From: a virus
Length of the DNA: 64,000 nucleotides
Strand: one strand, 5' to 3'
IMG/VR virus record: IMGVR_UViG_3300028920_000027
Coordinates: 96,001-160,000 of that record
Positions within the stretch are counted from its first letter, which is position 1. Each line of letters opens with the position of its first letter. A program made the translations under genes and the position numbers. The notes beneath the pieces are model-generated. The model saw nothing but the letters and a program-made list of their open reading frames with translations, had not been told where the DNA came from and searched no databases. Below are positions 5,713 through 51,934 of the stretch, one piece after another.

Positions 5713-5731
5713 CACCCCAACTGTACACCGG

Positions 5732-13751: not shown

Positions 13752-13866
13752 GCTTCCCAAAGCGGGAACTCGGACTTCTCGGTGTAGAGTGGGGCATGGC
13801 GACTCTGCTCATAGCCAACCACGCCTTCACCACGATCCAGGGGCCGCTCACGGACGTAAAGCACGG

Positions 13867-14565
13867 TCAATACTCGTCATCGTCGCGCTTCATGCGCTTC
13901 AGCTCTTGCTCGAACCAACACAGCTGGTTGACAGAGTGAACATGCTTGGCCCAGCGCGCTCGGAGCCGCCGCATTTCAGCCAAGTTGTCTGTCGTGCGGT
14001 CGGTCCAGATGTCCCACAGGGCCACGTCCCACCGTGCCTTCTTCGGGGGCTTGTACTCAAACACGTCCGCGGTGATGACCTTGAGCTTGTCGGCCGCCAC
14101 CGGACTGATGTTTTCGTCAACCCACGTCCGGAGCGGGAACTCGACCAACATTCGCACCGCCGGATGCTTCTCTAGGACGGTCACTTCTGTCACTCGGTCA
14201 AGTGATAAGATGGGGGGTAGGATCATACCCAACCCCAGACCACCGATGATGGCACGTCCACGCGCTTCATCAACGAAGTAAGCACATGTCTCGCGCTCCA
14301 TCCAGGTATCACTCATCACGACGTCACACCCTTGGTGGACCAGACGAGCATACTTCCCAGGAGGGACAGCCCCCCATTCATCTCGAGCAAAGAGCGCCTT
14401 GGTAGCCGTCTTCTCTGACTCTTTTGTGTCGATCTCGAAGTGCTCGACGGCCCAACCGTCAATTTGGCCTTCGGGGACTATTTCACGAACGGAAGGGAAG
14501 TTAGCCCCTTTGAATACACGTCTCATGACTTCTCGGTACAGGTAGTCGTTGCCAGCTGGCGGCAC
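13867..14565 (-). CDS. Class I SAM-dependent methyltransferase, spermidine-synthase-like
   Basis: VMSDTWME...IIGGLGLG...VTVLEK...ITADVFEY...DVALWDIW. Confidence 0.75.
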   Translation of the reverse strand: MPPAGNDYLYREVMRRVFKGANFPSVREIVPEGQIDGWAVEHFEIDTKESEKTATKALFARDEWGAVPPGKYARLVHQGCDVVMSDTWMERETCAYFVDEARGRAIIGGLGLGMILPPILSLDRVTEVTVLEKHPAVRMLVEFPLRTWVDENISPVAADKLKVITADVFEYKPPKKARWDVALWDIWTDRTTDNLAEMRRLRARWAKHVHSVNQLCWFEQELKRMKRDDDEY

Positions 14566-14568
14566 AAG

Positions 14569-14874
14569 TCAACGTCTCGGATCCCACTTCTTGAAGGTGA
14601 TTCCCTTCCGAATCGTGTCGAGCGCCTCATCGAGAACATCCTTCGGAACTTCGGGCTCCTCCTGGAGACGGCAATGATCCTGCCGTGCGTAGGTTTGTAC
14701 GACATCCTTCTCGGCAATGCGCCCCCGCTTGTTTGCAGCCCGCTCATACCGAACGTAGCCTTCAAGGTAAATGGCGGCGACTCCCCCTCTTTCCAGGAAG
14801 ATAAACCTCCACACTTGGCGAACCCTTGTCTCTCCGGGAGTGGAGGTGTCTCGTTGGACTTTGAATAGTTGCAT
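14569..14874 (-). CDS. Hypothetical protein, probable paralogue of 18609-18908
   Basis: W.F...L..Y...R...VP..V..EA pattern shared with 18609-18908. Confidence 0.5.
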   Translation of the reverse strand: MQLFKVQRDTSTPGETRVRQVWRFIFLERGGVAAIYLEGYVRYERAANKRGRIAEKDVVQTYARQDHCRLQEEPEVPKDVLDEALDTIRKGITFKKWDPRR

Positions 14875-14952
14875 GATCCCACTTACGAAGGCAGTTCCCA
14901 GAACGTTCGGTAAACCGACCAACCTGGTGTAAAGTAGGCCACCAAGCCAGGG

Positions 14953-16074
14953 ATGCCAGAGACTATCATCCGCTATGGGGACCTTGCCCAGCTCAGTAGG
15001 CATTACGATTTGCTGTCGAGGTGTGCCCTTGTCCGGTACGTCGAGATTCAAGACGTCGCCGATCGAGATATCCTTGCCCTGAGGATTGTGTACCGGGCCT
15101 GTGCTGAGGTGCGGGTGGAGTTGGACCACTTCGCCCAAGAAGCCAGTGGCACTATCACCCGTCTCACACGCGAACGGATCACCATGAGTATCCTTCAAAC
15201 CCAGGAAGGGCGGTCCCGCCTGGCGAGCCTGGCGGAATCATTTCGACAACAATTGGACTACGCGGGGATAGCCCGCCGTGCCCTTGTTGTCGACCCTTTG
15301 CCTGAAGGCGCGGTCCCCGTCTTCGAAGGTGATCTTGATGTTGCTCAACATGTTCTGGCAGAAGAGCACGTCTATGCCTACACCGAAGCTGAGCACGTGA
15401 ACCGTCCAGCTCCTCACCGCAACACGTTGGGCAAGTATGCCGACCTCATCACGACCGTCTTCGCGCCCGATGATCGCAACCTCTTACCCAGGAACCCCTT
15501 CGACTGGGGTTGGTGGGAAGGTGGTTGGTGGGGCGATGACGTTCACCCAGCAGGGTATTGGGTCTACTCAGATCCCTGGTGGTATCTGTGGCGCCGACAG
15601 ATTCAACAATCCGTTCTGACAGACCGAAGGATGGACAAGAGCATTCGACAAGTCACGGTGCCAATGTTCGAGATCGAATCGAGCCCCACTATAGCCATTG
15701 CGGATGTTCGAGAGCACCGCTTCAACCTCATTGAACGGCCTCAGTCGCTGACTCAGTCGCTGACTCAAACCGAGGTGGTGGGTAGGGGGGGCTACTCCAA
15801 GTCTATGGACCAGTGGCGCCCCAAGGACCGTCACTTGAAGCACTTCATGCCCATGGACCAGGAATGGCCCGAATGGGTCCAGCCAGGAGCCCATGTGCGC
15901 TCAACCTGCCCTGGTATGGGAGTGGCCACGGTCGTCGAGGTTCATAACCTCTACCTCACCCTCAACTGGAAAGGGTCCACCCAGCGGTGGTCTAAACATA
16001 CCGGGTGGTTCCACGACCACTGGCAGTATGAGGAGGCACCCCCAACCCTTTGGGAGCGTCTCAGCGCGGCTTGA
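14953..16074 (+). CDS. Mosaic protein with capsid-protein-like N-terminal segments and C-terminal TLWERL
   Basis: QTQEGRSRLA...LDYAGIARRALVVDPLPEGAVPVFEGD and VTVPMFEIESSPTI...RFNLIER recall large-phage major capsid N-terminal segments (from memory, unverified). Confidence 0.45.
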   Translation: MPETIIRYGDLAQLSRHYDLLSRCALVRYVEIQDVADRDILALRIVYRACAEVRVELDHFAQEASGTITRLTRERITMSILQTQEGRSRLASLAESFRQQLDYAGIARRALVVDPLPEGAVPVFEGDLDVAQHVLAEEHVYAYTEAEHVNRPAPHRNTLGKYADLITTVFAPDDRNLLPRNPFDWGWWEGGWWGDDVHPAGYWVYSDPWWYLWRRQIQQSVLTDRRMDKSIRQVTVPMFEIESSPTIAIADVREHRFNLIERPQSLTQSLTQTEVVGRGGYSKSMDQWRPKDRHLKHFMPMDQEWPEWVQPGAHVRSTCPGMGVATVVEVHNLYLTLNWKGSTQRWSKHTGWFHDHWQYEEAPPTLWERLSAA

Positions 16075-20252: not shown

Positions 20253-20654
20253 GTGGCTTTGAAGGTACTGGTTACCGGCAGTCGGAGCTGGGTCAGCCCG
20301 GTACCGATCCGTGAAGAGTTGGAGAAGCTCCCCCCAGGGACCATCCTCGTCCACGGCGCTTGTCGAGGTGCCGACAACATCGCCGCTGATGAAGCTCGCA
20401 AGCTGGGGTTCGAGGTCCGTGCCTACCCAGTGTCTGATGAGGAGTGGAATTCCAAGGGTGGGGGCGCCGGCCACGCCCGCAACCAGCAGATGCTCGATGA
20501 GGAGCACCCTGATCAGGACGACGTGTACATCGACCTCGTGCTTGCCTTTCACCGGGATTCCGGGTTAGGCCGTGGGACCCGTGACATGATGGCGCGCGTG
20601 GCCGTCGCAGACCCGCCCATTGAGCAAAAGGTCGTCGTCCACAGAAAGGGTTGA
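20253..20654 (+). CDS. SLOG superfamily (YspA/DUF2493-like) protein
   Basis: VLVTGSRSW...LVHGACRGAD...GHARNQQML...VLAFH...GTRDM. Confidence 0.8.
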   Translation: MALKVLVTGSRSWVSPVPIREELEKLPPGTILVHGACRGADNIAADEARKLGFEVRAYPVSDEEWNSKGGGAGHARNQQMLDEEHPDQDDVYIDLVLAFHRDSGLGRGTRDMMARVAVADPPIEQKVVVHRKG

Positions 20655-20659
20655 CAGGT

Positions 20660-20690
20660 TTGGGCATCGGGTCCATCATGCCTGTCACCG
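20660..20690 (+). promoter_or_regulatory. Sigma70-like promoter region (TTGACA-17-CATCAT); coordinates approximate (about 20651-20680)
   Basis: gggTTGACAggtttgggcatcgggtcCATCATg upstream of the 20813/PTH2/tRNA unit. Confidence 0.35.
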
Positions 20691-20812
20691 TCTTCGATTT
20701 CCGTCTTCGCAGGCTTCCCATCATGTCCAAATCGTAGACCTACAGCCGTTCGAGGTCGCCTCCAAGGTGCGCAGTTGGTACATAACCCCACTGCAACCCT
20801 TGGAGATCCAAA

Positions 20813-21256
20813 GTGAAAGAGCCCTCGACACCAATATCTAGACTGCGAACAGTCATTCGCGAACTGGCCAGCGCTGGCCACAACCATCGCCGACACCAGC
20901 AAGAACTGCGGCGCACCCCTGGTACGGGCCCGGTGCGGCAGGCCCTGCGGGAAGACTACCTGATCACGACGCGAGCTCAGGCCCGACACGCCTTGCTGGC
21001 CTACGCCATGATTAGAGGTCGGAAGTACGCCGATATCGAGCCCCGATCCAATGAGGCCCCTTCCGAGCGCTGGCTGATGGCCAACCTCTTGAAGGCTGAG
21101 CCTGAGGTCACTCCTACGCCGGCTGATCTTAAGGCGTGGATTGCAGGAGAGGAGTGCCCCTTCCAAGTGAACCTCAACGACCGGTGGGAGACCCGCCGCG
21201 CCTTGAGGAAAGCCGCCGCACTGAAAGCTTCCCCCGTACTGGAGGCCACGGGATGA
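20813..21256 (+). CDS. Hypothetical protein
   Basis: HALLAYAMIRGRKYADIE; GGAG RBS. Confidence 0.6.
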   Translation: MKEPSTPISRLRTVIRELASAGHNHRRHQQELRRTPGTGPVRQALREDYLITTRAQARHALLAYAMIRGRKYADIEPRSNEAPSERWLMANLLKAEPEVTPTPADLKAWIAGEECPFQVNLNDRWETRRALRKAAALKASPVLEATG

Positions 21257-21340
21257 TCGAAGTCAGAACCGTAAGCACCAAGCTCTTCCAGTTCCGAGAA
21301 GGTGCTGAGGAACGGATGGCTGACGCCTGCGACTACGACA

Positions 21341-21637
21341 ATGACTGACCGACTCCGCATTGTGACCCGCGCTGATCTCGCGCATGGCTCCCGCGCCGTG
21401 CAGGCTGTCCACGCCATGCGCGAGTGGGTCGACCAGTATCCGATCCTCGACCAGGAGTGGTACGAAAAGAGCAACACGATTGCCTTGCTTGAGGTTCCGA
21501 ATGAGTCTAAACTGCGCGCCCTATTGGAGCGCGCAACAGAACGGGGAATCCCTGTTGCATCGTGCTCAGTCCTGGGCGTGATGCTCGGCGGCTGTGCTCA
21601 TCCCTTCCCTTGGCTCTCAAGTTCGATGCCCCGGTAG
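21341..21637 (+). CDS. Peptidyl-tRNA hydrolase PTH2-like protein, C-terminus possibly damaged
   Basis: LRIVTRADLAHGSRAVQAVHA...SNTIALLEVPNE...GIPV; expected EPD-type C-terminal motif absent. Confidence 0.6.
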   Translation: MTDRLRIVTRADLAHGSRAVQAVHAMREWVDQYPILDQEWYEKSNTIALLEVPNESKLRALLERATERGIPVASCSVLGVMLGGCAHPFPWLSSSMPR

Positions 21638-21700
21638 CTCAGTTGGCAGAGCGGCTGGATTCTAACCCGGTGTGCGCAGGTTCAAGCCCTGCCTGGGGCG
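21628..21700 (+). tRNA. tRNA with 8-nt anticodon loop ATTCTAAC (Arg TCT, CTA or quadruplet TCTA)
   Basis: GCCCCGG/CTGGGGC acceptor, canonical D and T arms, stem GCTGG/CCGGT. Confidence 0.7.
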
Positions 21701-21704
21701 CTTT

Positions 21705-21780
21705 GGAGGTGTAGCTCAGTGGTAGAGCGCGGCCCTGTAAAAGGGGCTGATGTCGCGTGGTTCGATCCCACCCACCTCCA
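21705..21780 (+). tRNA. tRNA with expanded anticodon loop CTGTAAAAGG (Tyr/Thr-like, undetermined)
   Basis: GGAGGTG/CACCTCC acceptor, TAGCTCAGTGGTAGAGC D arm, TTCGATC T loop, stem CGGCC/GGCTG. Confidence 0.65.
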
Positions 21781-21815
21781 CTCTTTGAAAAAGTCGCGGG
21801 CGTTTTTTGATCCGC

Positions 21816-21825
21816 GGTGTACAGT
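21816..21825 (+). promoter_or_regulatory. GGTG-TACAGT promoter upstream of the isolated CRISPR repeat
   Basis: Matches the motif found before about 19 starts in the window. Confidence 0.6.
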
Positions 21826-21882
21826 CCGAACTCAACACAACGTCGGCGAGCCAACGATCAACACCGAGATAATCAACACCGA

Positions 21883-21918
21883 GATACCAGGGGCTTCCAG
21901 GCCCCTAAGGATTTCAAC
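21883..21918 (+). repeat. Isolated copy of the array-1 CRISPR repeat
   Basis: GATACCAGGGGCTTCCAGGCCCCTAAGGATTTCAAC, 32/36 identical to the array-1 consensus. Confidence 0.9.
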
Positions 21919-21938
21919 AACATCAAGATGAGGATCCA

Positions 21939-22679
21939 ATGTCGAAGCTGAGCCACGTTCTGGCAGTCGTCAACCAGGTCAAAACCAACGCGATGGAGCA
22001 GGTCACCGGGCTGTACCAGCAGCTTGATAAGGCCAAGTTGACGGTGGGCCTGACTCGAACCTACAAGCCTCTGACCGACGATGGTGAAACCCTTCCCGAC
22101 GAGAATTCCATCGTTCAGATGCGAGTTGAGGATGTTCTTCGCGACGTAGTCAAGCACCTGACGCCCCTCTACGACGTATCCCTCCAGCGCGATGCTGCGA
22201 ATTGCGAGGCCAAGGCTGATCTTGTCGTCGACGGTGAGACCCTGCTCAAGGACGTGCCCGCTACCTATCTGCTGTGGTTGGAGAAGCAGGTCAACCACAT
22301 GCACACGATCATCTGCAAGCTGCCCACGCTGCCGGCGGAAGGTGAGTGGACCTTCGACCAGGGGTCCGCATGCTACAAAGACACTGTGTCCATGAGGGCA
22401 CGCACCAAAAAGGTACCGAAGCCCATCACCCTGTGTGAAGCTACGAAGGAACACCCAGCCCAGGTTCAGCTTGCCCACGAGGACATCATTGTTGGCTACT
22501 GGCATCAAACCGCACTCTCCGGGGCCATCCCCCGTACGCGTGCACAAGAGCTGCGAGACAGGGTTGAAACCTTGTTGGCGGCCATCAAAACAGCGCGGGA
22601 AACCGCCAACCACGTCGAGGCCCCGAAGAAAGAAGCGGGTGCCGTGATCTTCCGCTACCTTTTCCGGAAGGAAAGCTAA
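21939..22679 (+). CDS. Conserved-looking helical/coiled-coil protein bracketed by CRISPR repeats
   Basis: 246 aa; GAGGA RBS; TRTYKPLTDDGETLPDE and VPATYLLWLEKQ blocks; function unknown. Confidence 0.8.
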   Translation: MSKLSHVLAVVNQVKTNAMEQVTGLYQQLDKAKLTVGLTRTYKPLTDDGETLPDENSIVQMRVEDVLRDVVKHLTPLYDVSLQRDAANCEAKADLVVDGETLLKDVPATYLLWLEKQVNHMHTIICKLPTLPAEGEWTFDQGSACYKDTVSMRARTKKVPKPITLCEATKEHPAQVQLAHEDIIVGYWHQTALSGAIPRTRAQELRDRVETLLAAIKTARETANHVEAPKKEAGAVIFRYLFRKES

Positions 22680-22747
22680 CCTGCCTCCGTGGTGGCAACC
22701 CCTTACCCAAGGAGGTTCATCTACATCCTGCTGCGACCCCAACAAGG

Positions 22748-22785
22748 GGTACCGGGGGGGCTTTTAGGCCCCTGAGGATTTCAAC
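22748..22785 (+). repeat. Second isolated copy of the array-1 CRISPR repeat
   Basis: GGTACCGGGGGGGCTTTTAGGCCCCTGAGGATTTCAAC; the 3' 17 nt are identical to the array repeat. Confidence 0.88.
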
Positions 22786-22821
22786 AAGACTACCTAAGCT
22801 GAAGCTAAGACTGAGACTGAC

Positions 22822-22960
22822 GACCCTTGGAGTTAAGTGTTGGTTCGATCCCAGCCCCGCCGACCGAGTCCCGCGGGCTCCTTCCCCGGATTGAGTCCCG
22901 GGCTCTCACCCTCTCATCGGCGGGTAGCCCAATCTGGCAGAGGCACTCCGTAGCCGGGTC
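22822..22960 (+). ncRNA. Circularly permuted tRNA-like RNA 1 (Y-RNA/YrlA-like)
   Basis: Order: GACCC..GGAGT, T arm GTTGG-TTCGATC-CCAGC, CCCGCCG, loop, CGGCGGG, D arm, ACTCC..GGGTC; all stems complementary. Confidence 0.7.
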
Positions 22961-23023
22961 TACCTGATGCCTGAGACTTGGTAGAAAGCTGACCAAAAGC
23001 GGTGGTCTCGCTCATCGACCGTT

Positions 23024-23180
23024 ACCTCGACAATCTTCGTGGATGTGGGTTCAAGTCCCTCCGGGCCAGCTCTGTCGAGTAGGGTCCGAACCACCCCCTC
23101 CCCCTTGGGTGGCTCCTTACTCGGCAGAGCTGGCCTGTAGCTCAATGGCAGAGCACACGAACTTTAGATCTGATCGAGGT
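23024..23180 (+). ncRNA. Circularly permuted tRNA-like RNA 2 (Y-RNA/YrlA-like)
   Basis: ACCTCGA..TTCGTG, T arm GTGGG-TTCAAGT-CCCTC, 21-bp closed acceptor-like hairpin (23062-82 with 23117-37), D arm TAGCTCAATGGCAGAGC, CACGAA..TCGAGGT. Confidence 0.7.
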
Positions 23181-23362
23181 CGACCCTGTGGAGCAGTAGT
23201 CTTCGGACTGAGACCAAACCGAACATCAATCCTAATACGACTGATCACAGAACCCGGGGAGCCGGCTATGCTCCTCGGGTTCGCCTATTTTGAGGACCGC
23301 GATGTTCAGGCTCGCCAAAAGTTGTTGACAGGGTGGGGAGTGGGGACTACAACAATCCCCAC

Positions 23363-23707
23363 GTGACAGAGTTTGGAGAGCACGTTCGGGCTCGCCGTGA
23401 GGCGGCGGGGCTATCGGTACGTCAGTTGGCCAAGCAAGCAGGTCTCGACCACAGCTACTTGAGCCGACTGGAGCTGGCCAAGGTCGGGACCTACCCCCCT
23501 TCGGAGGGGAAGGTCCAGGAGTTGGCCAAGGTGCTGGGCGAAGACCCAGACGTCCTGCTTGCGATGACGGGTCGAGTTTCCCGGGAGCTACTCAAGGTGA
23601 TCTTGAGCCGCCCCCGGGAGTTTGCTCAGCTTATCCGGCAGCTCAAAGACGCACCGGCCAACGCCATCCTCAGGGTGGTCCGAGAAGTGCGGGATGGAGA
23701 GTGGTAA
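23363..23707 (+). CDS. XRE-family HTH transcriptional regulator
   Basis: FGEHVRARREAAGLSVRQLAKQAGLDHSYLSRLE; TTGACA-17-TACAAC upstream. Confidence 0.85.
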   Translation: MTEFGEHVRARREAAGLSVRQLAKQAGLDHSYLSRLELAKVGTYPPSEGKVQELAKVLGEDPDVLLAMTGRVSRELLKVILSRPREFAQLIRQLKDAPANAILRVVREVRDGEW

Positions 23708-23708
23708 C

Positions 23709-24188
23709 ATGCTGGAATTGCACAATGATGAGCTGGTTTATGCGGTCCGCCACTCGGGATCACTCCAGAGAGCATCAGGGCAACCCTTTCCAGTGACCAG
23801 GTGCAGGTGCTCAAGGAAAAGCGTAAGGGGACCGTTCGTGACGGAGCGTGGGGTTAGCCCTGCTGTAGCTGGATCGATGGCACTCATGGGACACCTAAGT
23901 GCCGCCACCCGCGGCTTCGAGACCTGGGTCACCGAGGTGGCCCAGTCCGCGGGGATTCCCTACCTCGAAGAAGGGGAGCACCCCTCTGACTATAAGGTCA
24001 TGTCGATCTCTGACGTGATGCGCCTGGTCTCGAAGCCCAAGGGGATGTGGTCGGATAACTCCCAGCTGTGCTGGGTAATCCTCAACGGGGACGGACAAGC
24101 TCTGGGTATCCGGTCAATCGATCTATATCATAACCGAGAACGCGCCTATGAGCTGGTCCGGGTGCTGGAGCGCTCCGGTGTAGAGTGA
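23709..24188 (+). CDS. Hypothetical protein
   Basis: Follows the XRE gene at 1 nt. Confidence 0.5.
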   Translation: MLELHNDELVYAVRHSGSLQRASGQPFPVTRCRCSRKSVRGPFVTERGVSPAVAGSMALMGHLSAATRGFETWVTEVAQSAGIPYLEEGEHPSDYKVMSISDVMRLVSKPKGMWSDNSQLCWVILNGDGQALGIRSIDLYHNRERAYELVRVLERSGVE

Positions 24189-24213: not shown

Positions 24214-24287
24214 GTCCCCGTAGCTCAATCTGGCAGAGCACCCGCTTCTAGTTCGGGTTGTTGCAGGTTCAATTCCTGTCGGGGGCC
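24214..24287 (+). tRNA. tRNA with CTA anticodon (amber-suppressor-like)
   Basis: GTCCCCG/CGGGGGC acceptor; arm CCCGC-TTCTAGT-TCGGG; T arm GCAGG-TTCAATT-CCTGT; own GGTG-TAGAGT promoter at 24177. Confidence 0.7.
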
Positions 24288-24290
24288 CCC

Positions 24291-43292: not shown

Positions 43293-45077
43293 GGTACCAG
43301 GGGCTTCTAGGCCCCTGAGGATTTCAACCTCTCGACTTGCCTCACTCAGAGCAGCCAGGGAAGGGGGTACCAGGGGCTTCTAGGCCCCTGAGGATTTCAA
43401 CTTCGACTACATCGTCGTTGCGGTAGAGGGTGATACGAGGTACCAGGGGCTTCTAGGCCCCTGAGGATTTCAACCCGTTCTTCATCCTTCGCACCACCTC
43501 ACCCGCCCCCGGGTACCAGGGGCTTCTAGACCCCTGAGGATTTAAACAGAAGCAAGAAGGCGCCTGAGCCAACTGCGGCGCGGTACCAGGGGCTTCTAGA
43601 CCCCTGAGGATTTCAACACGCACGTCAATGCGCCAATCGCAAGCGACCCGAAGAGGTACCAGGGGCTTCTAGACCCCTGAGGATTTCAACATCGCCAAGC
43701 TACGGGAAGAGCTCAAGCGCGCCGAGGGTACCAGGGTCTTCTAGACCCCTGAGGATTTCCTCGGGCTCTTCTTCTTTCCGGACGTCACCGACGGTACCAG
43801 GGGCTTCTAGGTCCCTGAGGATTTCAACTGCCTCGGTACCAGGGGCTTCTAGACCCCTGAGGATTTCAACTAGGCGATCAGGAAGTCGTCGCCGACGCGC
43901 ATGAAAAGAGTACCAGGGGCTTCTAGACCCCTGAGGATTTCAACAGGATGGAGGAGAACTAGGGGCTTATAGACCCCTGAGGATTTCAACACTCTTGAGT
44001 GCCTCAAGCACTGCCGCGTTCGACGGTACCGCGTTCGACGGTACCAGGGGCTTCTAGACCCCTGAGGATTTCAACGCCTTCCGAGCATCGAGCAGAACTT
44101 CGCGATGGTACCAGGGGCTTTCTAGGCCCCTGAGGATTTCAACGATCAGGCGCTGGGACAAGCAGGGATGCCCCTCGGTGGGGTACCAGGGGCTCCAGGC
44201 CCCTGAGGATTTCAACAGCGTGTTCAAGAAGACGTAGGGAACCCCTTGGTGGGTACCAGGGGCTTCCAGGCCCCTGAGGATTTCAACCTGCTGCTAATAG
44301 GTCAAAAGGGTCCAGTATCTCCGCAGATATCAGGGTCTTCTAGACCCCTGAGGATTTCAACGAGTATTGAAACGCACTTGGCCACTGGCTCCTTCTAGGG
44401 TACCAGGGTCTTCTAGACCCCTGAGGATTTCAACCTGTCGTGGCCGGCGGCCGTTGCGAGTTCGCCGGGTGGTACCAGGGGTTTCTAGACCCCTGAGGAT
44501 TTCAACGTCAGTGTCCAGGGCCGACATGAGCCCCTTGGGTACCAGGGGCTTCTAGACCCCTGAGGATTTCAACGACTTCCTCGCCGAACTGCGAGAGGCG
44601 GTAGAGTAGGTACCAGGGGCTTCCAGGCCCCTGAGGATTTCAATGGGAGGACGCCAGTCTTCTTGAGTGCCTTTTTCGACGCAGTACCAGGGGCTTCTAG
44701 ACCCCTGAGGATTTCAACGGATACACGACCCCCTGTGGGCCGAAATCGACAAGCTCGGTGGCACCAGGGGCTTCTAGGCCCCTGAGGATTTCAACAAGAA
44801 GCTCCAGGGCGATCCCGTGCCGGGCAGCACGGTAAGGGGCTTCTAGGCCCCTGAGGATTTCAACGAGTAGCCTCGGACAGGCTCAATCCCCATCAACGAG
44901 GGTATCAGGGGCTCCTAGACCCCTGAGGATTTCAACCCACATGGGGCGTCGAGCCCGAGCGAGCGCCAGGTGGCACCAGGGCACGGCAAGGGGTCGGAAC
45001 CGGGCTTCCAGGGGCTTCCACGACCGCTTTGACAGTCGAGGGGTACCAGGGGCACACAAGCCCCTGAGGATTCCAAG
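43293..45077 (+). CRISPR. CRISPR array 1: 24 repeats plus a degenerate trailer repeat; consensus GGTACCAGGGGCTTCTAGACCCCTGAGGATTTCAAC (36 nt); spacers mostly 31-41 nt
   Basis: Repeats enumerated directly; CAGGGG/CCCCTG hairpin; orientation from leader, trailer decay and downstream terminator. Confidence 0.98.
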
Positions 45078-45159: not shown

Positions 45160-45195
45160 GGGAAAGGCTTGAACGTTCCTGGTGTATAAAGTTTC

Positions 45196-45906
45196 ATGTA
45201 CCCCACAACTGCAACGTTCGTCGTTGGGATCGACGGCGAGAGAGCTTGCTACTCCAACCCGGCGTTTCGCTCAGAACGCTACACATACCCCGTGATCACC
45301 CCACCGGCAGCGGCTGGCATCATGGACAACACTTGGTGGCGGCCGGGAGTACGGTGGGTCGTCGAACGAATCGACGTCTTGAAGCCGATCCAAACCTATA
45401 CACAAACTGTCAACGAGATCAAGGTCTGCCCTCAGACCTTGGAATCGGCTCTGAAATATCGGGTAGCAAAACTGCTACCGAGCTCTGAAGCAGTTCAGGT
45501 TCAAGGAGGGGTTAACATTGAAACCAATCGCACCTTGAGGCGCACCACGATGTTGTACGACGTATCATACAACATCTGGATGCGGGCTGTATGTGCCGAC
45601 TGGAGGCTCGCCAAGAAAGCCGAAGCGAGCACCTGCCGCTTCCTTCTTTCCGGTCGTAGCTTCCGACCTCGATGCCTTGGGATGAGAGAGTTGGATGCCA
45701 AGGTACGGCTGGTCACTATGCTCGACCACGATGGGGTGGCCCACACTGACCTCCCTCGCCCCATCCCACTGACTCAGGACCTTGGGTGGATGGTACACAG
45801 CTACGTCTGGGAAAACGGCGTCCGCAAACAGGTCGGGTTGTTCCATGCCTACCTGAACGCTGGCACGCTACTCGTGCCCCCAGAACCAATGAGGATGGTG
45901 TCATGA
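45196..45906 (+). CDS. cas5: Cas5d (type I-C pre-crRNA processing nuclease)
   Basis: ACYSNPAFRSERYTYPVITPPAAAGI...WWRPGVRWVVERIDVLKPI...NEIK...YDVSY...CLGMRE. Confidence 0.88.
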   Translation: MYPTTATFVVGIDGERACYSNPAFRSERYTYPVITPPAAAGIMDNTWWRPGVRWVVERIDVLKPIQTYTQTVNEIKVCPQTLESALKYRVAKLLPSSEAVQVQGGVNIETNRTLRRTTMLYDVSYNIWMRAVCADWRLAKKAEASTCRFLLSGRSFRPRCLGMRELDAKVRLVTMLDHDGVAHTDLPRPIPLTQDLGWMVHSYVWENGVRKQVGLFHAYLNAGTLLVPPEPMRMVS

Positions 45907-47105
45907 TCCTAGAGACCTTGTATGAATTTGCCAAGCTGCATGGACTCGTGCCCAGCGTGCTTCGGAAACGACACGCCAATTACACTTTCCACCTCGATCC
46001 GAAGGGGTGTTTGCGTGAGTTCTCTGACGAGCGACAAGTGATGGCAGACGCGAAGGCCAAACGGTCCAGCAATATCCAACCCAACTTGCTCGACAATGTG
46101 GGGTACACATTCGGTTTGGGCAAGCATGGACCCAAACGACAGGAAGCCTGGTTGGAGGCCCTACGCGCCTTCAAGTCCATGGCGCCGGTTGCAACCTTCG
46201 CTCAAAAGCCTCTACCTGATGGCATCCTCAAGATTCTTGCCAAAAACTCGTCCAAGGTTGTGGCCTTCACCGTGGGAGGGGAGTCCCCCTATGAACACCC
46301 TGACATCGTTGAGCACCTGAACGCTCAAGAGGAAGGTGACTACATCTGCCGCATCACTGGACGGAGCTGTAGTCCAGGATTCGTCCCCAACATCAGCAAC
46401 CTACCCCCCAACGGAAGCTTGCAGAACTTCGTGGGGTTCAATGCGTCCGCTACACAGTTCGATGGGCGTGAAAACAAATGCTGCTTTGTCATGCATCGCG
46501 AAGTTCGCGAAGGCATCATTGCAGCCATTGACCATCTCGCGCGCTATGAGAACAAGGAGCGCCCGTCGGCCATCGTTGCAACGAAGCGCTTTCACTCCAA
46601 GAGTGAGGTAAACTCTGCTCGGAGTGGGCCCGTCCCCACGACTCTGCTCTTCTCCCTGGAACCAGAGTTCGACGTTAGCCCTCTGATGGTCCTGCTTAGG
46701 GGGTTGAGGTCAGAAGGGGAAACCCCAGAGGAACGACTGGAGGAAGGTCGACAAGCTCATAAGGCTGCCCTGGAAACCCTGGTCTCATGGACGGGCTACT
46801 CTGGGGATCTCTATGCTCTGACCCTTTGCGCTGACGGGGCCTGCCGACGGACGGCTGTACTGGACTTCACTACCATCCCTCTAGCAGAGATCCCGGCTCG
46901 GATGGAGTCGTTCACTCATGCATCTGGCCCGTACCCCCTACGCTGGCGGCTGGCCGAAATGCCCAACTACACGCTCGCGTGGCGCTTCATGCGGGCTGTC
47001 TTGGCCGGTGACCCTCTACCTCCCGCAATCCTGGCACACGCACTTCGGCAGCCGCTCAAGAACGAGCAGCTGTTGACCACTCTCACAGCTTTTCAAAGCC
47101 TTTAG
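45903..47105 (+). CDS. cas8c: Cas8c large subunit (N-terminal part only)
   Basis: MILETLYEFAK...RSSNIQPNLLDNVGYTFG; ATGA overlap with cas5; ~400 aa, shorter than typical Cas8c. Confidence 0.75.
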   Translation: MILETLYEFAKLHGLVPSVLRKRHANYTFHLDPKGCLREFSDERQVMADAKAKRSSNIQPNLLDNVGYTFGLGKHGPKRQEAWLEALRAFKSMAPVATFAQKPLPDGILKILAKNSSKVVAFTVGGESPYEHPDIVEHLNAQEEGDYICRITGRSCSPGFVPNISNLPPNGSLQNFVGFNASATQFDGRENKCCFVMHREVREGIIAAIDHLARYENKERPSAIVATKRFHSKSEVNSARSGPVPTTLLFSLEPEFDVSPLMVLLRGLRSEGETPEERLEEGRQAHKAALETLVSWTGYSGDLYALTLCADGACRRTAVLDFTTIPLAEIPARMESFTHASGPYPLRWRLAEMPNYTLAWRFMRAVLAGDPLPPAILAHALRQPLKNEQLLTTLTAFQSL

Positions 47106-47119
47106 CCAAAGAGGACCTA

Positions 47120-47596
47120 ATGCCTGAAACCACCCCTGAAACCACCCCTGAAACCCCAACCACTCCGACCAATGGTCACAGGATTTCAGAAAAAAGGCTG
47201 GCCCAGCTAAGACACCCCAACCCGACCTTTCACCTGGGCCGTGCCATGGCTCGTGCTGTGGTCATCTACAGGTACGCGCAAGGCAGTGCCGCAGCAGCAT
47301 CCCTGGAGAATAAGGTCGTGTCCGCGGGGTCTCGCCCCTTGGAAATCGTTACCCAGATTCTCAACCGGACTCAACGAGCCATCGCGTACTTGAGTCGTGG
47401 GGAGGCCCGCCAAGGGGCGGCAATCGACATCCATAACTATGAAGAAGCAGTGGAGTTGATCGATGCCCAAGCGCTGCCCCGCACGTTCCAGGCGCAGGAC
47501 CAGGTCCTGTTCTGGAACGGGTACAACAGCGAGAAGAATTGCATCCGCGCCCGACAACGTATTCAGGCTGCGGAATCGGCAAACAAAGGGGGCTAA
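47120..47596 (+). CDS. cas11: Cas11c small subunit encoded as a separate gene
   Basis: PTFHLGRAMA...LPRTFQAQDQVLFWNGY resembles the Cas8c C-terminal domain; own GAGGA RBS; different frame from cas8c. Confidence 0.7.
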   Translation: MPETTPETTPETPTTPTNGHRISEKRLAQLRHPNPTFHLGRAMARAVVIYRYAQGSAAAASLENKVVSAGSRPLEIVTQILNRTQRAIAYLSRGEARQGAAIDIHNYEEAVELIDAQALPRTFQAQDQVLFWNGYNSEKNCIRARQRIQAAESANKGG

Positions 47597-47646: not shown

Positions 47647-47668
47647 CCAAATGTAAATGTGGAGAAAA

Positions 47669-48670
47669 ATGACTAAGACAACTACGACTAAGGCAACTAC
47701 TCTTCCCGCCCTCGATGGACTTTTGGTAATCGAGGCCCACAACGACGCCCTCAATATCGACCCCGATGTCGGAGTGCCCCGCACCAACCCCATCTCGGGA
47801 AAGGGGGAGGTTAGCGCTGAATGCATAAAGGCCAAAATCCGGCGGTCCGCTATGCGGCTCAACCCGACTTTGGTGCCGTTCTACCACCGTGGCGCCGTCC
47901 ACCAGGACCACATCGAGCAGGCATACGAAGCTGCCGGCGCCATCGTCAAGACTGCGAAGAAGGCGTCCAAGAAGACTGCGAAGGCTGAGGCCCCCGACAT
48001 CGAGGATACTGAGGCCCCCGACACCGAGGATGCCGAGGATAACACCATCACGATCGACACCATCAAAGGCAACGCCGAGCTGTGCCGCATCTTCTTCGAC
48101 GTCTCTTGGTTTGGACTGGTGGTCACCAAGCCGGGTCGCGGTCAGATCCGGGGACCATTCTCATTCGGGATTGGCGAGACCGTCTATCCTGTGAATCTGG
48201 ATGAGCGCCTCCTGACCCGCCAGACGGTCACCAACCGAGAACGGTCAGACAAGCAGAAGGGTGCCAACCAGGAGTTCGGACGCAAGACCGTTGTGACCCA
48301 TGGGGTCTACCTCGTACACTGGCACTTCGACCCCTTCTGCGCCGACCAGAACGGGCTCACGGAGCAGGACCTGGCGGAGTTCATCGAGGCCATGCTCCAC
48401 ATGTTCCGCAACGACCAGTCGTCAGCACGGAACAACGTGACACTGCGGAAGGCTTATGTCTTCGAGCACGCGAGTCCCTTCCGGGACGCCGAACCGGTCG
48501 AGCTTTTAGAGCAAATCAAGGTCACGGCCGAGAACCCCGACACCGCGGTCTCTTGGGACGCCTACACAGTCGAGGTCCCGGCAGACTTGCCTGAGACGAT
48601 CAAGCTCCACGTCCTCAAGGACGGCCTCACCATCAACAATCCCTGGGTCAAGGCATCCGCTGCCGAATAA
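47669..48670 (+). CDS. cas7: Cas7c (Csd2) backbone subunit
   Basis: NIDPDVGVPRT...GEVSAECIKAKIR...FFDVSWFG...GQIRGP...FGRKTVVTHGVY...MFRNDQSSAR. Confidence 0.9.
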   Translation: MTKTTTTKATTLPALDGLLVIEAHNDALNIDPDVGVPRTNPISGKGEVSAECIKAKIRRSAMRLNPTLVPFYHRGAVHQDHIEQAYEAAGAIVKTAKKASKKTAKAEAPDIEDTEAPDTEDAEDNTITIDTIKGNAELCRIFFDVSWFGLVVTKPGRGQIRGPFSFGIGETVYPVNLDERLLTRQTVTNRERSDKQKGANQEFGRKTVVTHGVYLVHWHFDPFCADQNGLTEQDLAEFIEAMLHMFRNDQSSARNNVTLRKAYVFEHASPFRDAEPVELLEQIKVTAENPDTAVSWDAYTVEVPADLPETIKLHVLKDGLTINNPWVKASAAE

Positions 48671-48718: not shown

Positions 48719-48738
48719 TGTAGTTTTTGGGAACGTTC

Positions 48739-51252
48739 ATGAGATTCCGACACTATCAGATTCACGGATTCAGCGCGGCGACGAGTCGTCGTTGGCGTTT
48801 CATCTACCTATGCTGGGCTGTAGCTTCCGGTAAGACAGCGTTCACCCATGCCTACCTGGCCGAAGTTTTCCGCAACGGCTGGCACTCGCACGCAGTCATT
48901 GTGGGGCCCTACGAGCCCATCCGCAACGGGTTCGACACCAGCAAACTGGGTGACGATAAGCGCGAGTTCTGCATGGGGGGTGTCACTGTCCGGGCTTGGG
49001 CAGGGATGGTTCGAGAGTTGAAGAGAGGGTCCTCCCAAGCCGGCCAAGCCGGCCGCATTGAGTCGACCGTTCGGGAGTTGGTCAGCTACTTGCTGAACCC
49101 TCGCCCCACGGATGAAGCCACGGGAAGGCCTTACGCTGTCAGCGTGTGTACGCAGACAGCTCTTCAGTTAATCCTTCATATGGACCAGCTACCGGCTGAC
49201 ATGAGTCACGTGCTGTTCGTCATCGACGAAGCTCAGGGTATCGGTGCTGACTGTACCAACCGTGTCGTGAACACCCTGATTTCTCGGGGAACTCGCTTCA
49301 TCCTTGCATCGGGGTCACCGTACCGGGACGACAACCGAAATGTCCTCCCCGACCCCAATGACCCAGATGTTCTCATTCTCTCCCGGTCTCTGGCAGAGCA
49401 GATTCACGAGGGGTATGCCCCTCGTGTTAAGTTCGAGGTCGAGGTCGTTGACTGCGATGGGGACACCTATGAGTCCCGTCAGCAGCAGATGATCGACCAT
49501 GTGGTGGCCGACTTCCAACCTGGCCAGAAGAAAGTCATCCGTGCTGTCCCTGCGCGGGGTGCCATGTACGACAGGGACGGTGAGGATGCCGATGCCGATG
49601 ACTTCTCGGAGAACGTCGATGACGTGAGAGTAGGGGTGCGACTCCGGGACCTGGCGCTCAGGGCTTTTACTGAAAGGGGTTTACGATTTCGGGATGCCAC
49701 GAGCTACCCAGGCAACCACGGCGACGACTGGCTGGAGTCCGAGCGTCGGGTTCGCGACTTCAATGATTCGGAAGTTGATGTGGTGTGGGGGATCAACCGC
49801 ATCTACTGCGGCATGGATTGGGCTCTGGCGAACACAGTGTGCTGCCTAGACTTCCCCACGACTTTACCCTTGATCGTCCAGCTCCTCGGGCGTGGCATGA
49901 GGTACAAGGGCGGCCGGCACGGAGGTGGGTATGCCAACTACCCGGAGCAGTACCTCGAACGGACGCTTCTCAAAATCTACGTTCCCGGCCGACGTGACGG
50001 AAGTGAGCGCTTCTTTCGGCACGACATGGCCCAGGTAGCTGTCAAGATCGGAGCTGTCCTCGCCACAGTAGCTCTCCCGGACGGCTTGACCGCCAAGCTG
50101 GATATGCACCGAGCTTTGAGGTCCCCTCTCAGCGACGCTTCGGTCGTCGAAGGCACTGGTAGGGGGAGTGCCAACGAAAGCGAGATCGCCGAAGCCGCTA
50201 GTCAACACTTCATGATCCACTACGGACGGCGGGAGTGCACCGTTGGTGAAGCTCGTGATCAGCTCATGCGTGCATACCGCATTCGTCGCCAAAGGCAGGG
50301 TCTCGAGGTGTCGGATGAAGACGTGGAGGCAATCAACCTCTTACTCCACCGTTTCATCAGCGAACGCAACGAACGAAACCCGTTGGATCGTGAAAGCCAG
50401 CGACGCATGGGAGAAGCCCATGACCGCGCCGTTGAAGCCGCTGCTCGACGCCATCCCCACAACCCGAGACGGTTGGTACAGGAAGCCTATCGCCGCGTGA
50501 TTGACGAGTACAGCGAGATGCGGATCGTAACCGCTGAATCACCTCTTCTCAGCACCATTGTGCGATTCGTGATCGACCTCGACGATGGGACAGCAGGCGG
50601 CATTGCACAAAGGTTGGAACAAGAGTCTCGACCTCTACATGAGCAAGCTGTGCGCCACTGGGCTATGGCCTACTGGACCAACAACGGAGCCTTCCCTGAC
50701 ACCGACAGTGGCCCCGTCCAGGAAGACCCTCGCGAAGATTGGTCTCGCGTCATTGCCGCTTTACAAGGGGGTTATCGAGGACTACCCTCACACCCTTCTG
50801 TGGAAGACCTGGTGCGTTCCCATCAGATGAGTGATGGCGACGTGTTGCATCTATTCAGGCTCTGCCCCGACTTATTGCCATCGGACTTGACGGTGGGGTG
50901 GACGTCAGACGTGAGTCTGCAATTCTACTACGATCGGTACCGAGACATGAGGCGCACCGCCGAGGCGTTACCTCCACACACTTGGAATAGGCTCGTTGAC
51001 TACTTGCTCCAGCAATCAACCATTCGGCTGGGCTCCCTGTTGAACCTATTTCGAGAAACTCCAGTGACAGTTGACCTTCGGGCCCGACGGCCCTGGTATC
51101 TGTTCTGGCACTCCGTGAGCCGCGCTTCTTCGGAAGGTAGGGACCTCGACCTGCGGACATTGCGAACCTGGATTCGACGGGTTCGCAATGGAGCTGTCTC
51201 TATTGGCCAGGTCTACGACGACGACAGTTCAGCTACCACCGTAGTGGTGTAA
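48739..51252 (+). CDS. SF2 (ResIII-like) helicase with unknown C-terminal region; no HD nuclease domain
   Basis: FRHYQ (Q motif), ASGKT (I), IDEAQG (II), ASGSP (III), CGMDW (V), QLLGRGMR (VI). The helicase core begins at the N-terminus, leaving no room for an N-terminal HD domain. Confidence 0.8.
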   Translation: MRFRHYQIHGFSAATSRRWRFIYLCWAVASGKTAFTHAYLAEVFRNGWHSHAVIVGPYEPIRNGFDTSKLGDDKREFCMGGVTVRAWAGMVRELKRGSSQAGQAGRIESTVRELVSYLLNPRPTDEATGRPYAVSVCTQTALQLILHMDQLPADMSHVLFVIDEAQGIGADCTNRVVNTLISRGTRFILASGSPYRDDNRNVLPDPNDPDVLILSRSLAEQIHEGYAPRVKFEVEVVDCDGDTYESRQQQMIDHVVADFQPGQKKVIRAVPARGAMYDRDGEDADADDFSENVDDVRVGVRLRDLALRAFTERGLRFRDATSYPGNHGDDWLESERRVRDFNDSEVDVVWGINRIYCGMDWALANTVCCLDFPTTLPLIVQLLGRGMRYKGGRHGGGYANYPEQYLERTLLKIYVPGRRDGSERFFRHDMAQVAVKIGAVLATVALPDGLTAKLDMHRALRSPLSDASVVEGTGRGSANESEIAEAASQHFMIHYGRRECTVGEARDQLMRAYRIRRQRQGLEVSDEDVEAINLLLHRFISERNERNPLDRESQRRMGEAHDRAVEAAARRHPHNPRRLVQEAYRRVIDEYSEMRIVTAESPLLSTIVRFVIDLDDGTAGGIAQRLEQESRPLHEQAVRHWAMAYWTNNGAFPDTDSGPVQEDPREDWSRVIAALQGGYRGLPSHPSVEDLVRSHQMSDGDVLHLFRLCPDLLPSDLTVGWTSDVSLQFYYDRYRDMRRTAEALPPHTWNRLVDYLLQQSTIRLGSLLNLFRETPVTVDLRARRPWYLFWHSVSRASSEGRDLDLRTLRTWIRRVRNGAVSIGQVYDDDSSATTVVV

Positions 51253-51361
51253 GGTAGCGAGGGGTTCGGTGATACCGAAACCCCCAACACCTCTCGCAGC
51301 CCAAATTTTCAAGGGGGTTCCCACCCCCTTGGTCTTTGACAGCACATAACCGCTCGCATCC
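51253..51361 (+). promoter_or_regulatory. Truncated CRISPR leader of array 2
   Basis: GCGAGGGG..CCCC..ACCTCTCGCA..GGGGGT..CTTTGACA as in leader 1, but only ~20 nt before a 5'-truncated first repeat. Confidence 0.6.
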
Positions 51362-51934
51362 CAATTCTTGCCCTTGAGGATTCCAACAGCTCCTCCAGAA
51401 CACCCGGGGCGAGTCGGCCGTACAGGAACAAGGGCAATTCTTGCCCTTGAGGATTCCAACCACAACTTCGAGTTGGTTCACTACGGGGAGGGGCAAGGGC
51501 AATTCTTGCCCTTGAGGATTCCAACCATGGTTCGGCGAACGAACTTGCATTTCTCGTACTGCGGGACAAGGGCAATTCTTGCCCTTGAGGATTCCAATGA
51601 TCTGCTGTGAGACAAAGCTAAAATGCCCTCTCTGAAACAAGGGCAGTTGCCCTTGAGGATTCCAACATCGCCCACGAGACCAAGGCAGACTTCGACGAAT
51701 GGCAAGACAAGGGCAGTCCATGCCCTGAGGATTCCAACGTGGCTCCCGCGACCCGGTCGAACACCTCGAGGAAGGAGACAGTCTTGGCCCTTGAGGATTC
51801 CAACCTGCGGTAATGGCACAAGCAGACGTTTTACCGTCGTGAGACAAGGGCCTTGCCCTTGAGGATTCCAACATCCAAAACCACTCTGGGAGCTACGGCT
51901 ACATCGTATGTGTCTTTGCCCTTGAGGATTCATG
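51362..51934 (+). CRISPR. CRISPR array 2: ~9 repeats, consensus near GGGACAAGGGCAATTCTTGCCCTTGAGGATTCCAAC, 8 spacers, increasingly degenerate 3'
   Basis: Repeats enumerated directly; CAAGGGC/GCCCTTG hairpin; 29-37 nt unique spacers. Confidence 0.93.

Follow-up and report, generated by a model that had tools for sequence, protein, structure and literature searches.

Single CRISPR repeats that stand outside any array, termed solitary repeat units (SRUs), were first listed by Faure et al. (2019), as cited in Camara-Wilpert et al. (2023, PMC10651486), and among the closest described counterparts of the locus reported here are the viral SRUs and RNA anti-CRISPRs (Racrs) of the latter work, in which a single viral repeat lies outside an array and 3' of a promoter and can share its RNA with a protein gene, and in which type I-C is represented. 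The present locus lies in IMG/VR virus record IMGVR_UViG_3300028920_000027, in a 64,000-nt stretch (hereafter the window, bases 96001-160000 of the 182,335-bp record, whose CheckV completeness is 38%) that is a fragment of a huge phage. It shares those properties with the viral SRUs, but its two repeat copies correspond to the array and effector operon that the phage itself carries and not to those of a host, and they bracket a gene that is one half of a conserved RNA-protein module and is not an anti-CRISPR. New here is a single gene flanked on either side by a repeat from the type I-C system of the very phage that carries it. The gene and the RNA within the unit form an ordinary pair of an already known kind, and the finding rests on one genome.

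A second group of comparators is formed by the type I-C CRISPR RNA-like RNAs (crlRNAs) of Nezha, Gabija and other supervised systems (bioRxiv 10.1101/2024.12.27.630466) and by the CreTA-type regulators, which likewise consist of a single I-C repeat-like unit adjoining a non-cas gene. In the known crlRNA units Cas5c cuts 5' of the 11-nt handle and the downstream sequence passes into Cascade, and the same may hold here. Those units are found in or beside a cas operon and pair partially with a promoter site flanked by a protospacer-adjacent motif (PAM), whereas the copies in the window lie ~21-23 kb from the cas genes, have no PAM-flanked target in the 182 kb, and are followed after the handle by an mRNA start or a structured RNA. 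The engineered Csy4/Cas6f insulators resemble the locus in placing a repeat hairpin in the 5' untranslated region (UTR) and after the open reading frame (ORF), and cleavage of such hairpins in mRNAs gives defined ends and uncouples neighbouring elements (PMC4604432), but they are man-made and use Cas6f, and no natural Cas5d case on a non-CRISPR operon was found in the literature searched. For the RNA of the unit, the nearest published relative is the YrlA Y RNA with Ro60/Rsr (Chen et al. 2014, PMC4201824; Rfam RF02553), from which it differs in having no Ro60 gene, a sub-threshold Rfam score and two modules in one longer RNA. Among the DUF7873/double tRNA-mimic pairs themselves the window gene and RNA are ordinary members, and the other members examined are without CRISPR repeats. 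CRISPR-Cas systems of huge phages were reportedly described by Al-Shayeb et al. in 2020 as being without adaptation genes, which the present phage resembles in having effector genes and arrays and no cas1 match in 182 kb; to our knowledge, that description does not extend to solitary repeats on either side of a phage gene.

On one strand, the unit reads promoter-like motif, repeat, ORF, repeat, structured RNA and terminator-like hairpin, and its features are as follows.

21816-21825, plus strand: promoter-like motif GGTGTACAGT, a candidate phage-specific extended -10 type, proposed from its over-representation and from a homologous site in the related contig L004
21857-21886, plus strand: 15-nt tandem duplication of ATCAACACCGAGATA in two copies, the second of which gives SRU1 its first 4 nt
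21883-21918, plus strand: SRU1, a solitary array-1 CRISPR repeat in the 5' UTR, with a 7-bp hairpin and the 11-nt handle at 21908-21918
21939-22679, plus strand: DUF7873 gene, 246 aa (Pfam PF25283), with the ribosome-binding site (RBS) GAGGA 5 nt upstream
22748-22785, plus strand: SRU2, a solitary array-1 repeat between the stop codon and the RNA, with the handle at 22775-22785 and an altered 5' stem arm
22786-23292, plus strand: DUF7873-associated double tRNA-mimic RNA of ~500 nt, with modules at 22829-22950 and 23037-23161 and the terminator-like hairpin at 23250-23282

An earlier note on this DNA had described two near-exact array-1 repeats at these positions, and both are indeed there, in the same orientation (+) as arrays 1 and 2. 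SRU1 matches the array-1 variants at 34/36 positions and differs at 2/36; its 3' 18 nt hold a single change relative to the array, the G>A at 21907 that had also been pointed out, which lies at the stem base just 5' of the expected Cas5d cut. In the case of SRU2 the 3' 18 nt are exactly those of the array, and the changes comprise, in the 5' stem arm, an A>G and the addition of two G, and, in the loop, a single substitution-like change. The array-1 repeat ends in the 3' handle AGGATTTCAAC, and its 11 nt are intact in both solitary copies, each of which folds into the upper 7-bp hairpin (-12.4 kcal/mol), the array consensus being 8 bp. The loop of SRU1, CTTCCAGG, is that of the array repeats at 44252 and 44609, while the loop of SRU2 matches no array repeat, and the two copies differ from each other at ~6 positions and have ~30/36 bases in common; from these differences and from their likeness to different array variants it follows that they arose in two events and not by one duplication.

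SRU1 and SRU2 are the sole copies outside the arrays in the 182 kb, in two scans of the whole record, one allowing <=3 mismatches in the 3' 18-mer of the array-1 repeat and the other allowing <=2 mismatches in the 12-nt handle and requiring a hairpin. Each is an intergenic match with no other repeat within 100 bp, which is the definition of an SRU used in SRUFinder-type searches. In local alignment to the array-1 repeat the window copies score 30 and 29, against <=12 in the 328 flanks of 164 other DUF7873 loci (165 including the window). What the sequence shows directly is the two copies themselves, that they are unique, how they are oriented and where they lie with respect to conserved elements, and that Cas5d is encoded. 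The copies are not artefacts of assembly: the sole sequencing run listed as holding the stretch is a marine-sediment DNA run, and an independent 41-kb Logan contig from it covers 21700-23400 without differences, at a depth equal to that of the array contigs, so that mis-assembly at the repeats is ruled out by a separately assembled, identical contig.

The placement of the copies is precise. Both lie outside ORFs, and the 829-nt interval between them holds, as originally reported, one complete ORF with its ATG 20 nt past the end of SRU1. We considered whether repeat, gene and repeat might be a CRISPR mini-array and rejected this, given an interval of 829 nt with a conserved gene against a normal spacer of ~30-40 nt. 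For both SRUs the last base of the repeat is the right edge of the insertion, after which comes native sequence common to relatives, consisting of the RBS and start codon after SRU1 and of AAGACTAC after SRU2. The comparison that defines these edges is with L004, a 3.5-kb metagenome contig collinear with window positions 20253-23722, which has proteins 52-75% identical to those of the window and shares two tRNAs, the promoter motif, DUF7873, the RNA and a helix-turn-helix gene. Relative to L004 the window has ~85 extra nt between the promoter motif and the RBS, with SRU1 at their end and the ATCAACACCGAGATA duplication inside them, and ~40-56 extra nt between the stop codon and the 5' end of the RNA, with SRU2 at their end. 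SRU2 directly adjoins on its 3' side the conserved 5' end of the RNA (22786-22793), and the earlier description of a gap of about 36 nt before the RNA does not hold, the first module beginning at 22829. With a crude gene model, a random pair of intergenic insertions would bracket one gene in the sense orientation in ~0.2% of trials.

The origin of the sequence to the left of each copy was also considered. The sequences preceding each SRU have no exact match in IMG/VR, in the arrays or in their leaders, and give no sign of being former spacers. IMG/VR likewise lacks an exact 17-mer taken from the repeat, and a metagenome scan for the repeat end joined to GACTACC returned 120 random matches to this loose pattern, none with DUF7873 or the RNA.

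The gene and its RNA can be described independently of the repeats. A profile search of the 246-aa protein, which had been proposed beforehand, gave a full-length DUF7873 match (290 bits against a cut-off of 27; residues 1-243 over 244 profile positions). A near-length search yielded 294 homologues, and DUF7873 is encoded by at least 418 viral contigs and 577 bacterial species. The AlphaFold model has a pLDDT of 90, but a Foldseek search of it against the PDB gave nothing at E <=0.001, a VIA search gave helical-hairpin matches only (Z <=8), and PADLOC, PHROGs and NCBIfam hold no match to DUF7873. Across the 164 loci there is no conserved protein neighbour, and the conserved neighbour is the RNA: a covariance model built from 35 modules (R1) scores 52.4 bits at 22829-22950 and 45.3 bits at 23037-23161, and by eye one or two modules were counted directly 3' of the DUF7873 gene in ~77/83 viral and ~74/80 bacterial loci. 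In each module a T arm, a capped acceptor-like stem and a D arm are closed by an outer stem in a permuted tRNA-like arrangement, and across the 35 modules, which come from phages as well as bacteria, pairing reaches 90.5% of cells, compared with 64% after shuffling, and 16/21 pairs covary. Two tRNA-like RNAs had been noted earlier at this place; two tRNA-like modules are present, but both lie in one ~500-nt RNA. Its 5' closing segment AAGACTAC is the 5' strand of a closing helix that can pair with 23196-23203, and it aligns with a conserved GACTACC start in L004 and in two further related loci, L002 and L005. The pair of DUF7873 and RNA is a self-contained, CRISPR-independent and widespread module.

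The suggested link to Ro60/TROVE or RtcB found no match to either in the 182-kb fragment, which is 38% of the genome, and with 32.2 bits against the 69 needed, and no TROVE gene in the 182 kb, the RNA was rejected as a YrlA Y RNA (Rfam RF02553). Two smaller features of the RNA may be mentioned. Its 5' track (22786-22822, first 35 nt) contains the 6-nt units AAGCTG, AAGCTA, AGACTG and AGACTG, a kind of track that is conserved across bacterial and phage loci and that is the portion Cas7 would cover if loaded behind the SRU2 handle. At the other end, a strong terminator-like hairpin at 23250-23282 closes the unit, and its loop GCCGGCTATGC is kept in L004 (2921-2950), L002 (7125-7155) and L005 (7133-7158) although the DUF7873 proteins there are only 58-68% identical; with so conserved a loop, the hairpin may be more than a terminator.

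At the front of the unit, the promoter motif that had been placed at 21816 belongs to a family of sites, GGTGTANAGT, of which there are 10 in the window against 0.31 expected, a ~30-fold excess. The sites, at 5720, 13781, 14926, 18917, 21816, 24177, 32334, 34171, 51953 and 59424, mostly precede genes, and one is upstream of the amber-suppressor tRNA; the motif is kept at the homologous place in L004. We regard GGTGTANAGT as a credible candidate promoter element of the phage, and a near variant, GGTGTATAAAGT, is found upstream of cas5d at ~45182.

The system to which the repeats belong lies further along the window.

43293-45077, plus strand: CRISPR array 1, 25 repeats with irregular spacing, the source family of both solitary repeats
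45190-45801, plus strand: cas5d (Cas5c), a candidate endoribonuclease gene (NCBIfam TIGR01876, 86.5 bits against a cut-off of 85)
45786-47105, plus strand: cas8c, from Pfam matches
47120-47596, plus strand: separate cas11-like ORF, matching the C-terminal part of Csd1
47657-48670, plus strand: cas7, from Pfam matches
48727-51252, plus strand: cas3-like helicase gene, with a Helicase_C match only and a weak Cas3 assignment
51352-51872, plus strand: CRISPR array 2, 8 repeats of a related but distinct sequence, from a repeat search

The Cas5d, Cas8c and Csd-family Cas7 that together mark a type I-C module are all found (TIGR01876, 86.5 bits; PF09709, 48 bits; PF05107, 153 bits), and the Cas5d relatives of the phage protein in the PDB are recovered at E 2e-21. 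The nearest relative of the Cas7 is 42% identical and is the sole one among 5.8 billion proteins, and a Cas7 pattern scan found no viral relative. Since the phage Cas proteins are very divergent, the repeats match the phage's own system and not a generic host one.

We suggest that the placement of the two SRUs reflects an interaction at the RNA level with the phage Cas5d or Cascade, by processing or by binding, to which we give a probability of roughly 0.4, and we rank this reading above one of neutral scars. In this proposal one transcription unit, running from the promoter-like motif at 21816 to the terminator at ~23282, would encode DUF7873 and its partner RNA, and two separate insertions would have put the phage's own I-C repeats, sense-oriented, before the RBS and between the stop codon and the RNA. 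The phage Cas5d would recognise the hairpin base and handle and cut there, or at least bind, the expected cuts being at 21907/21908 and 22774/22775. Cutting would give three pieces, of which the first is the leader, the second is the mRNA with a CRISPR RNA (crRNA) handle 20 nt before its ATG and a repeat hairpin at its 3' end, and the third is the tRNA-mimic RNA with a crRNA handle on its 5' closing stem, and the outcome could be a separate dosing or stabilising of mRNA and RNA. Loading of Cas7 behind the handle would occlude the RBS. Transcription of the unit, its cleavage or binding and any effect on expression are what we infer from the sequence.

Several lines of evidence make this reading attractive. 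Known relatives of Cas5d cut at the base of the hairpin and retain the 11-nt handle, and the determinants of Cas5c recognition are the cut site and the downstream 11-nt handle, with the 5' end and the loop dispensable (PMC8524198). The changes in SRU2 all fall in the dispensable 5' arm and loop and the handles are kept, which favours something more than scars, as do the exact right junctions together with two independent events flanking one gene. Precedent exists for the cutting of single I-C repeat units by Cas5c and their passage into Cascade (bioRxiv 10.1101/2024.12.27.630466), and an I-C solitary repeat on one transcript with a protein gene is known in RacrIC1-AcrIC5 (PMC10651486). A bolder form of the proposal, which we hold to be rather unlikely, is that Cas5d or Cascade has been recruited beyond immunity and, by means of the two acquired repeats, acts on the transcript of an operon for a non-CRISPR ribonucleoprotein by processing or coating it, so that the mRNA and the tRNA-mimic RNA both receive crRNA-type 5' handles and CRISPR proteins control the DUF7873 particle.

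If Cas5d does cut or bind here, the CRISPR-nuclease insulators engineered for synthetic biology would have a natural equivalent in this locus, which would also show a virus using CRISPR proteins to manage its own mRNA and structured RNA; the defined RNA ends and the protein partner would also give an experimental handle on the uncharacterised DUF7873/double tRNA-mimic particle, which hundreds of bacteria and phages possess. Should the repeats prove to be scars, they would still document the escape of repeat units from arrays in phages without adaptation genes.

A number of observations weigh against an RNA-level role. The closing C-G pair at the stem base is gone in both copies, in SRU1 through the G>A and in SRU2 through a bulge, and sensitivity to stem-base changes differs among enzymes, the Bacillus halodurans Cas5c being sensitive and the Streptococcus mutans enzyme tolerant (PMC8524198). 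The phage Cas5d has W and K at the positions of the catalytic Tyr and His of the B. halodurans and S. mutans Cas5c proteins; in the HMMER alignment to 3kg4 and 3vzi, the confidence of which is middling, W stands at the Tyr/His position and K-K at K-H. Another solved Cas5c has L and K-F at the same catalytic positions, so that these positions vary, and the phage Cas5d is a putative RNase. Both repeat insertions are absent from the collinear L004, and L002 and L005, with proteins 58-60% identical, have the module without repeats. In the 164 other DUF7873 loci, the closest of which is 68% identical in the collections, so that the comparison covers only relatives at or below that value, neither flank holds a repeat match (best score 12 against 29-30), nor is there a flanking direct repeat of any kind. 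In a set of 50 larger viral records with DUF7873, an I-C-type Cas7 together with an array of 29 repeats occurs in one, G030 (619 kb), and all 29 matches to its repeat are inside the array, with no solitary copy and none near its DUF7873. The repeat-ORF-repeat-RNA synteny that was to be looked for in relatives is thus missing from L004, from the 164 loci and from the CRISPR-bearing G030; the DUF7873 module works without CRISPR in hundreds of genomes, and the solitary repeats appear to be an add-on of this phage lineage only. Finally, the duplication at SRU1 and the resemblance of GGTTACC, at the SRU2 site in L004, to the first 6 nt of the repeat, GGTACC, which could be a microhomology junction, are compatible with slippage or microhomology insertion.

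Beside these observations, a hairpin after the stop codon in L004 was examined as a repeat-like element and rejected, its score of 10 being reached by 4% of shuffles and equalled at other loci. The G030 array lies at 13797-15566 of its locus L288 (G030:C1:503495-505549) on the minus strand, ~6 kb from cas7, and its repeat ends in GTGAATTCAAGC.

The strongest competitor to the RNA-level reading, although we consider it doubtful, is that the repeats are neutral scars left by recent illegitimate or microhomology recombination, or by slippage, between array and locus, tolerated in untranslated gaps and having no role. The earlier note had itself named homologous loci without the repeats as a pointer to a one-off recombination scar, and such loci are what the data contain, in relatives <=68% identical; of 165 loci, the one in this genome alone has the repeats, both copies have a damaged stem base, and the 15-nt tandem duplication adjoining SRU1 would be a sign of local slippage. 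Array 1 is disorderly, and from its irregular spacers and decayed repeat it follows that repeat-mediated rearrangement is active. Against this reading, scars would need two independent sense-oriented events flanking the same gene, with the ~0.2% probability given above, and each insertion has its right-hand junction precisely where the repeat ends, the handles are intact with changes confined to dispensable parts, and no further scars are seen in the 182 kb.

It is less probable that each lone repeat makes a crRNA-like guide, consisting of the 11-nt handle and ~35 nt of native sequence and loaded by Cascade, which would be directed at repeat-less alleles in rival phages or hosts or would repress a promoter by partial pairing in the manner of crlRNAs and CreA. 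Type I-C single units do yield crlRNAs of 48-50 nt with an 11-nt handle and a non-repeat 3' end (bioRxiv 10.1101/2024.12.27.630466), in both copies the repeat stops precisely where native sequence starts, and the self locus would be protected, since AAC and not a TTC-type PAM precedes the match. When targets were sought as >=12/15 seed matches next to TTN, with shuffled guides as controls, however, there were zero TTN-flanked sites pairing with the first 18 nt of either guide in the 182 kb (38% of the genome), and shuffled guides likewise gave none. When the junctions are reconstructed as they were before insertion, the putative protospacer is preceded by ACC, CTG or CTC and not by TTC, and the nearest relatives are too diverged to serve as targets.

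A role as RNA anti-CRISPR decoys, in which the repeats soak up the Cas proteins of a host or rival type I-C system, has precedent in the viral solitary repeats known as Racrs, often just 3' of a promoter, and in an I-C Racr that is bicistronic with a protein gene (PMC10651486). We judge it decidedly unlikely because the copies match the phage's own divergent system, which they would mainly poison; moreover, Racr loci are described without associated cas genes, whereas here a full effector operon ~21-23 kb away and two arrays are present, and no acr-like neighbours were seen around the unit. Least probable of all is that the repeats, which measure 36-38 nt, point the same way at a distance of 829 nt and are oriented as the arrays 21 kb away, are recombination handles by which the DUF7873 gene is excised or exchanged with the arrays like a cassette, given that no joined (deleted) form occurs among the contigs of the source run, that the copies have only ~30/36 bases in common, that deletion of the gene would orphan the RNA, and that divergence from L004 is no greater for the gene than for the genes around it, which gives no sign of cassette replacement.

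The arrays and cas genes have some features of their own. The spacers of array 1 include lengths of 6 and 10 nt, one spacer of 49 nt with an internal duplication and one of 105 nt with a decayed repeat, and compensatory G>T / G>A changes preserve the hairpin in three of its repeats. The 33 spacers of both arrays have no match in the 182 kb or in any fetched locus. The cas8c gene ends in TAG, and the cas11-like ORF begins 15 nt later in another frame, matching the last 110 positions of the Csd1 profile; the stand-alone Cas11-like gene here contrasts with the internal-start Cas11 of classical I-C systems.

The window carries tRNA clusters, parts of which lie close to the unit. Downstream, at 24214-24289, is a tRNA with a CUA (amber-reading) anticodon preceded by its own GGTGTAGAGT motif, and TAG is still in use as a stop codon, cas8c being one gene that ends in it. 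Immediately before the unit, at 21628-21781, two tRNAs have odd anticodon loops: ARAGORN assigns there a 4-base anticodon, tcta, and a Leu-taa in whose loop the Rfam alignment shows an insertion of 4 nt and not 1. Near the module there are also a YAcAr (SLOG-family) gene at 20253-20654 and a PTH2-like (peptidyl-tRNA hydrolase-like) gene at 21302-21637, which raise the possibility of a functional neighbourhood around tRNA or RNA repair, and YAcAr is present again in L004 (248-643) and L002 (8397-8798), the phage loci closest to the window.

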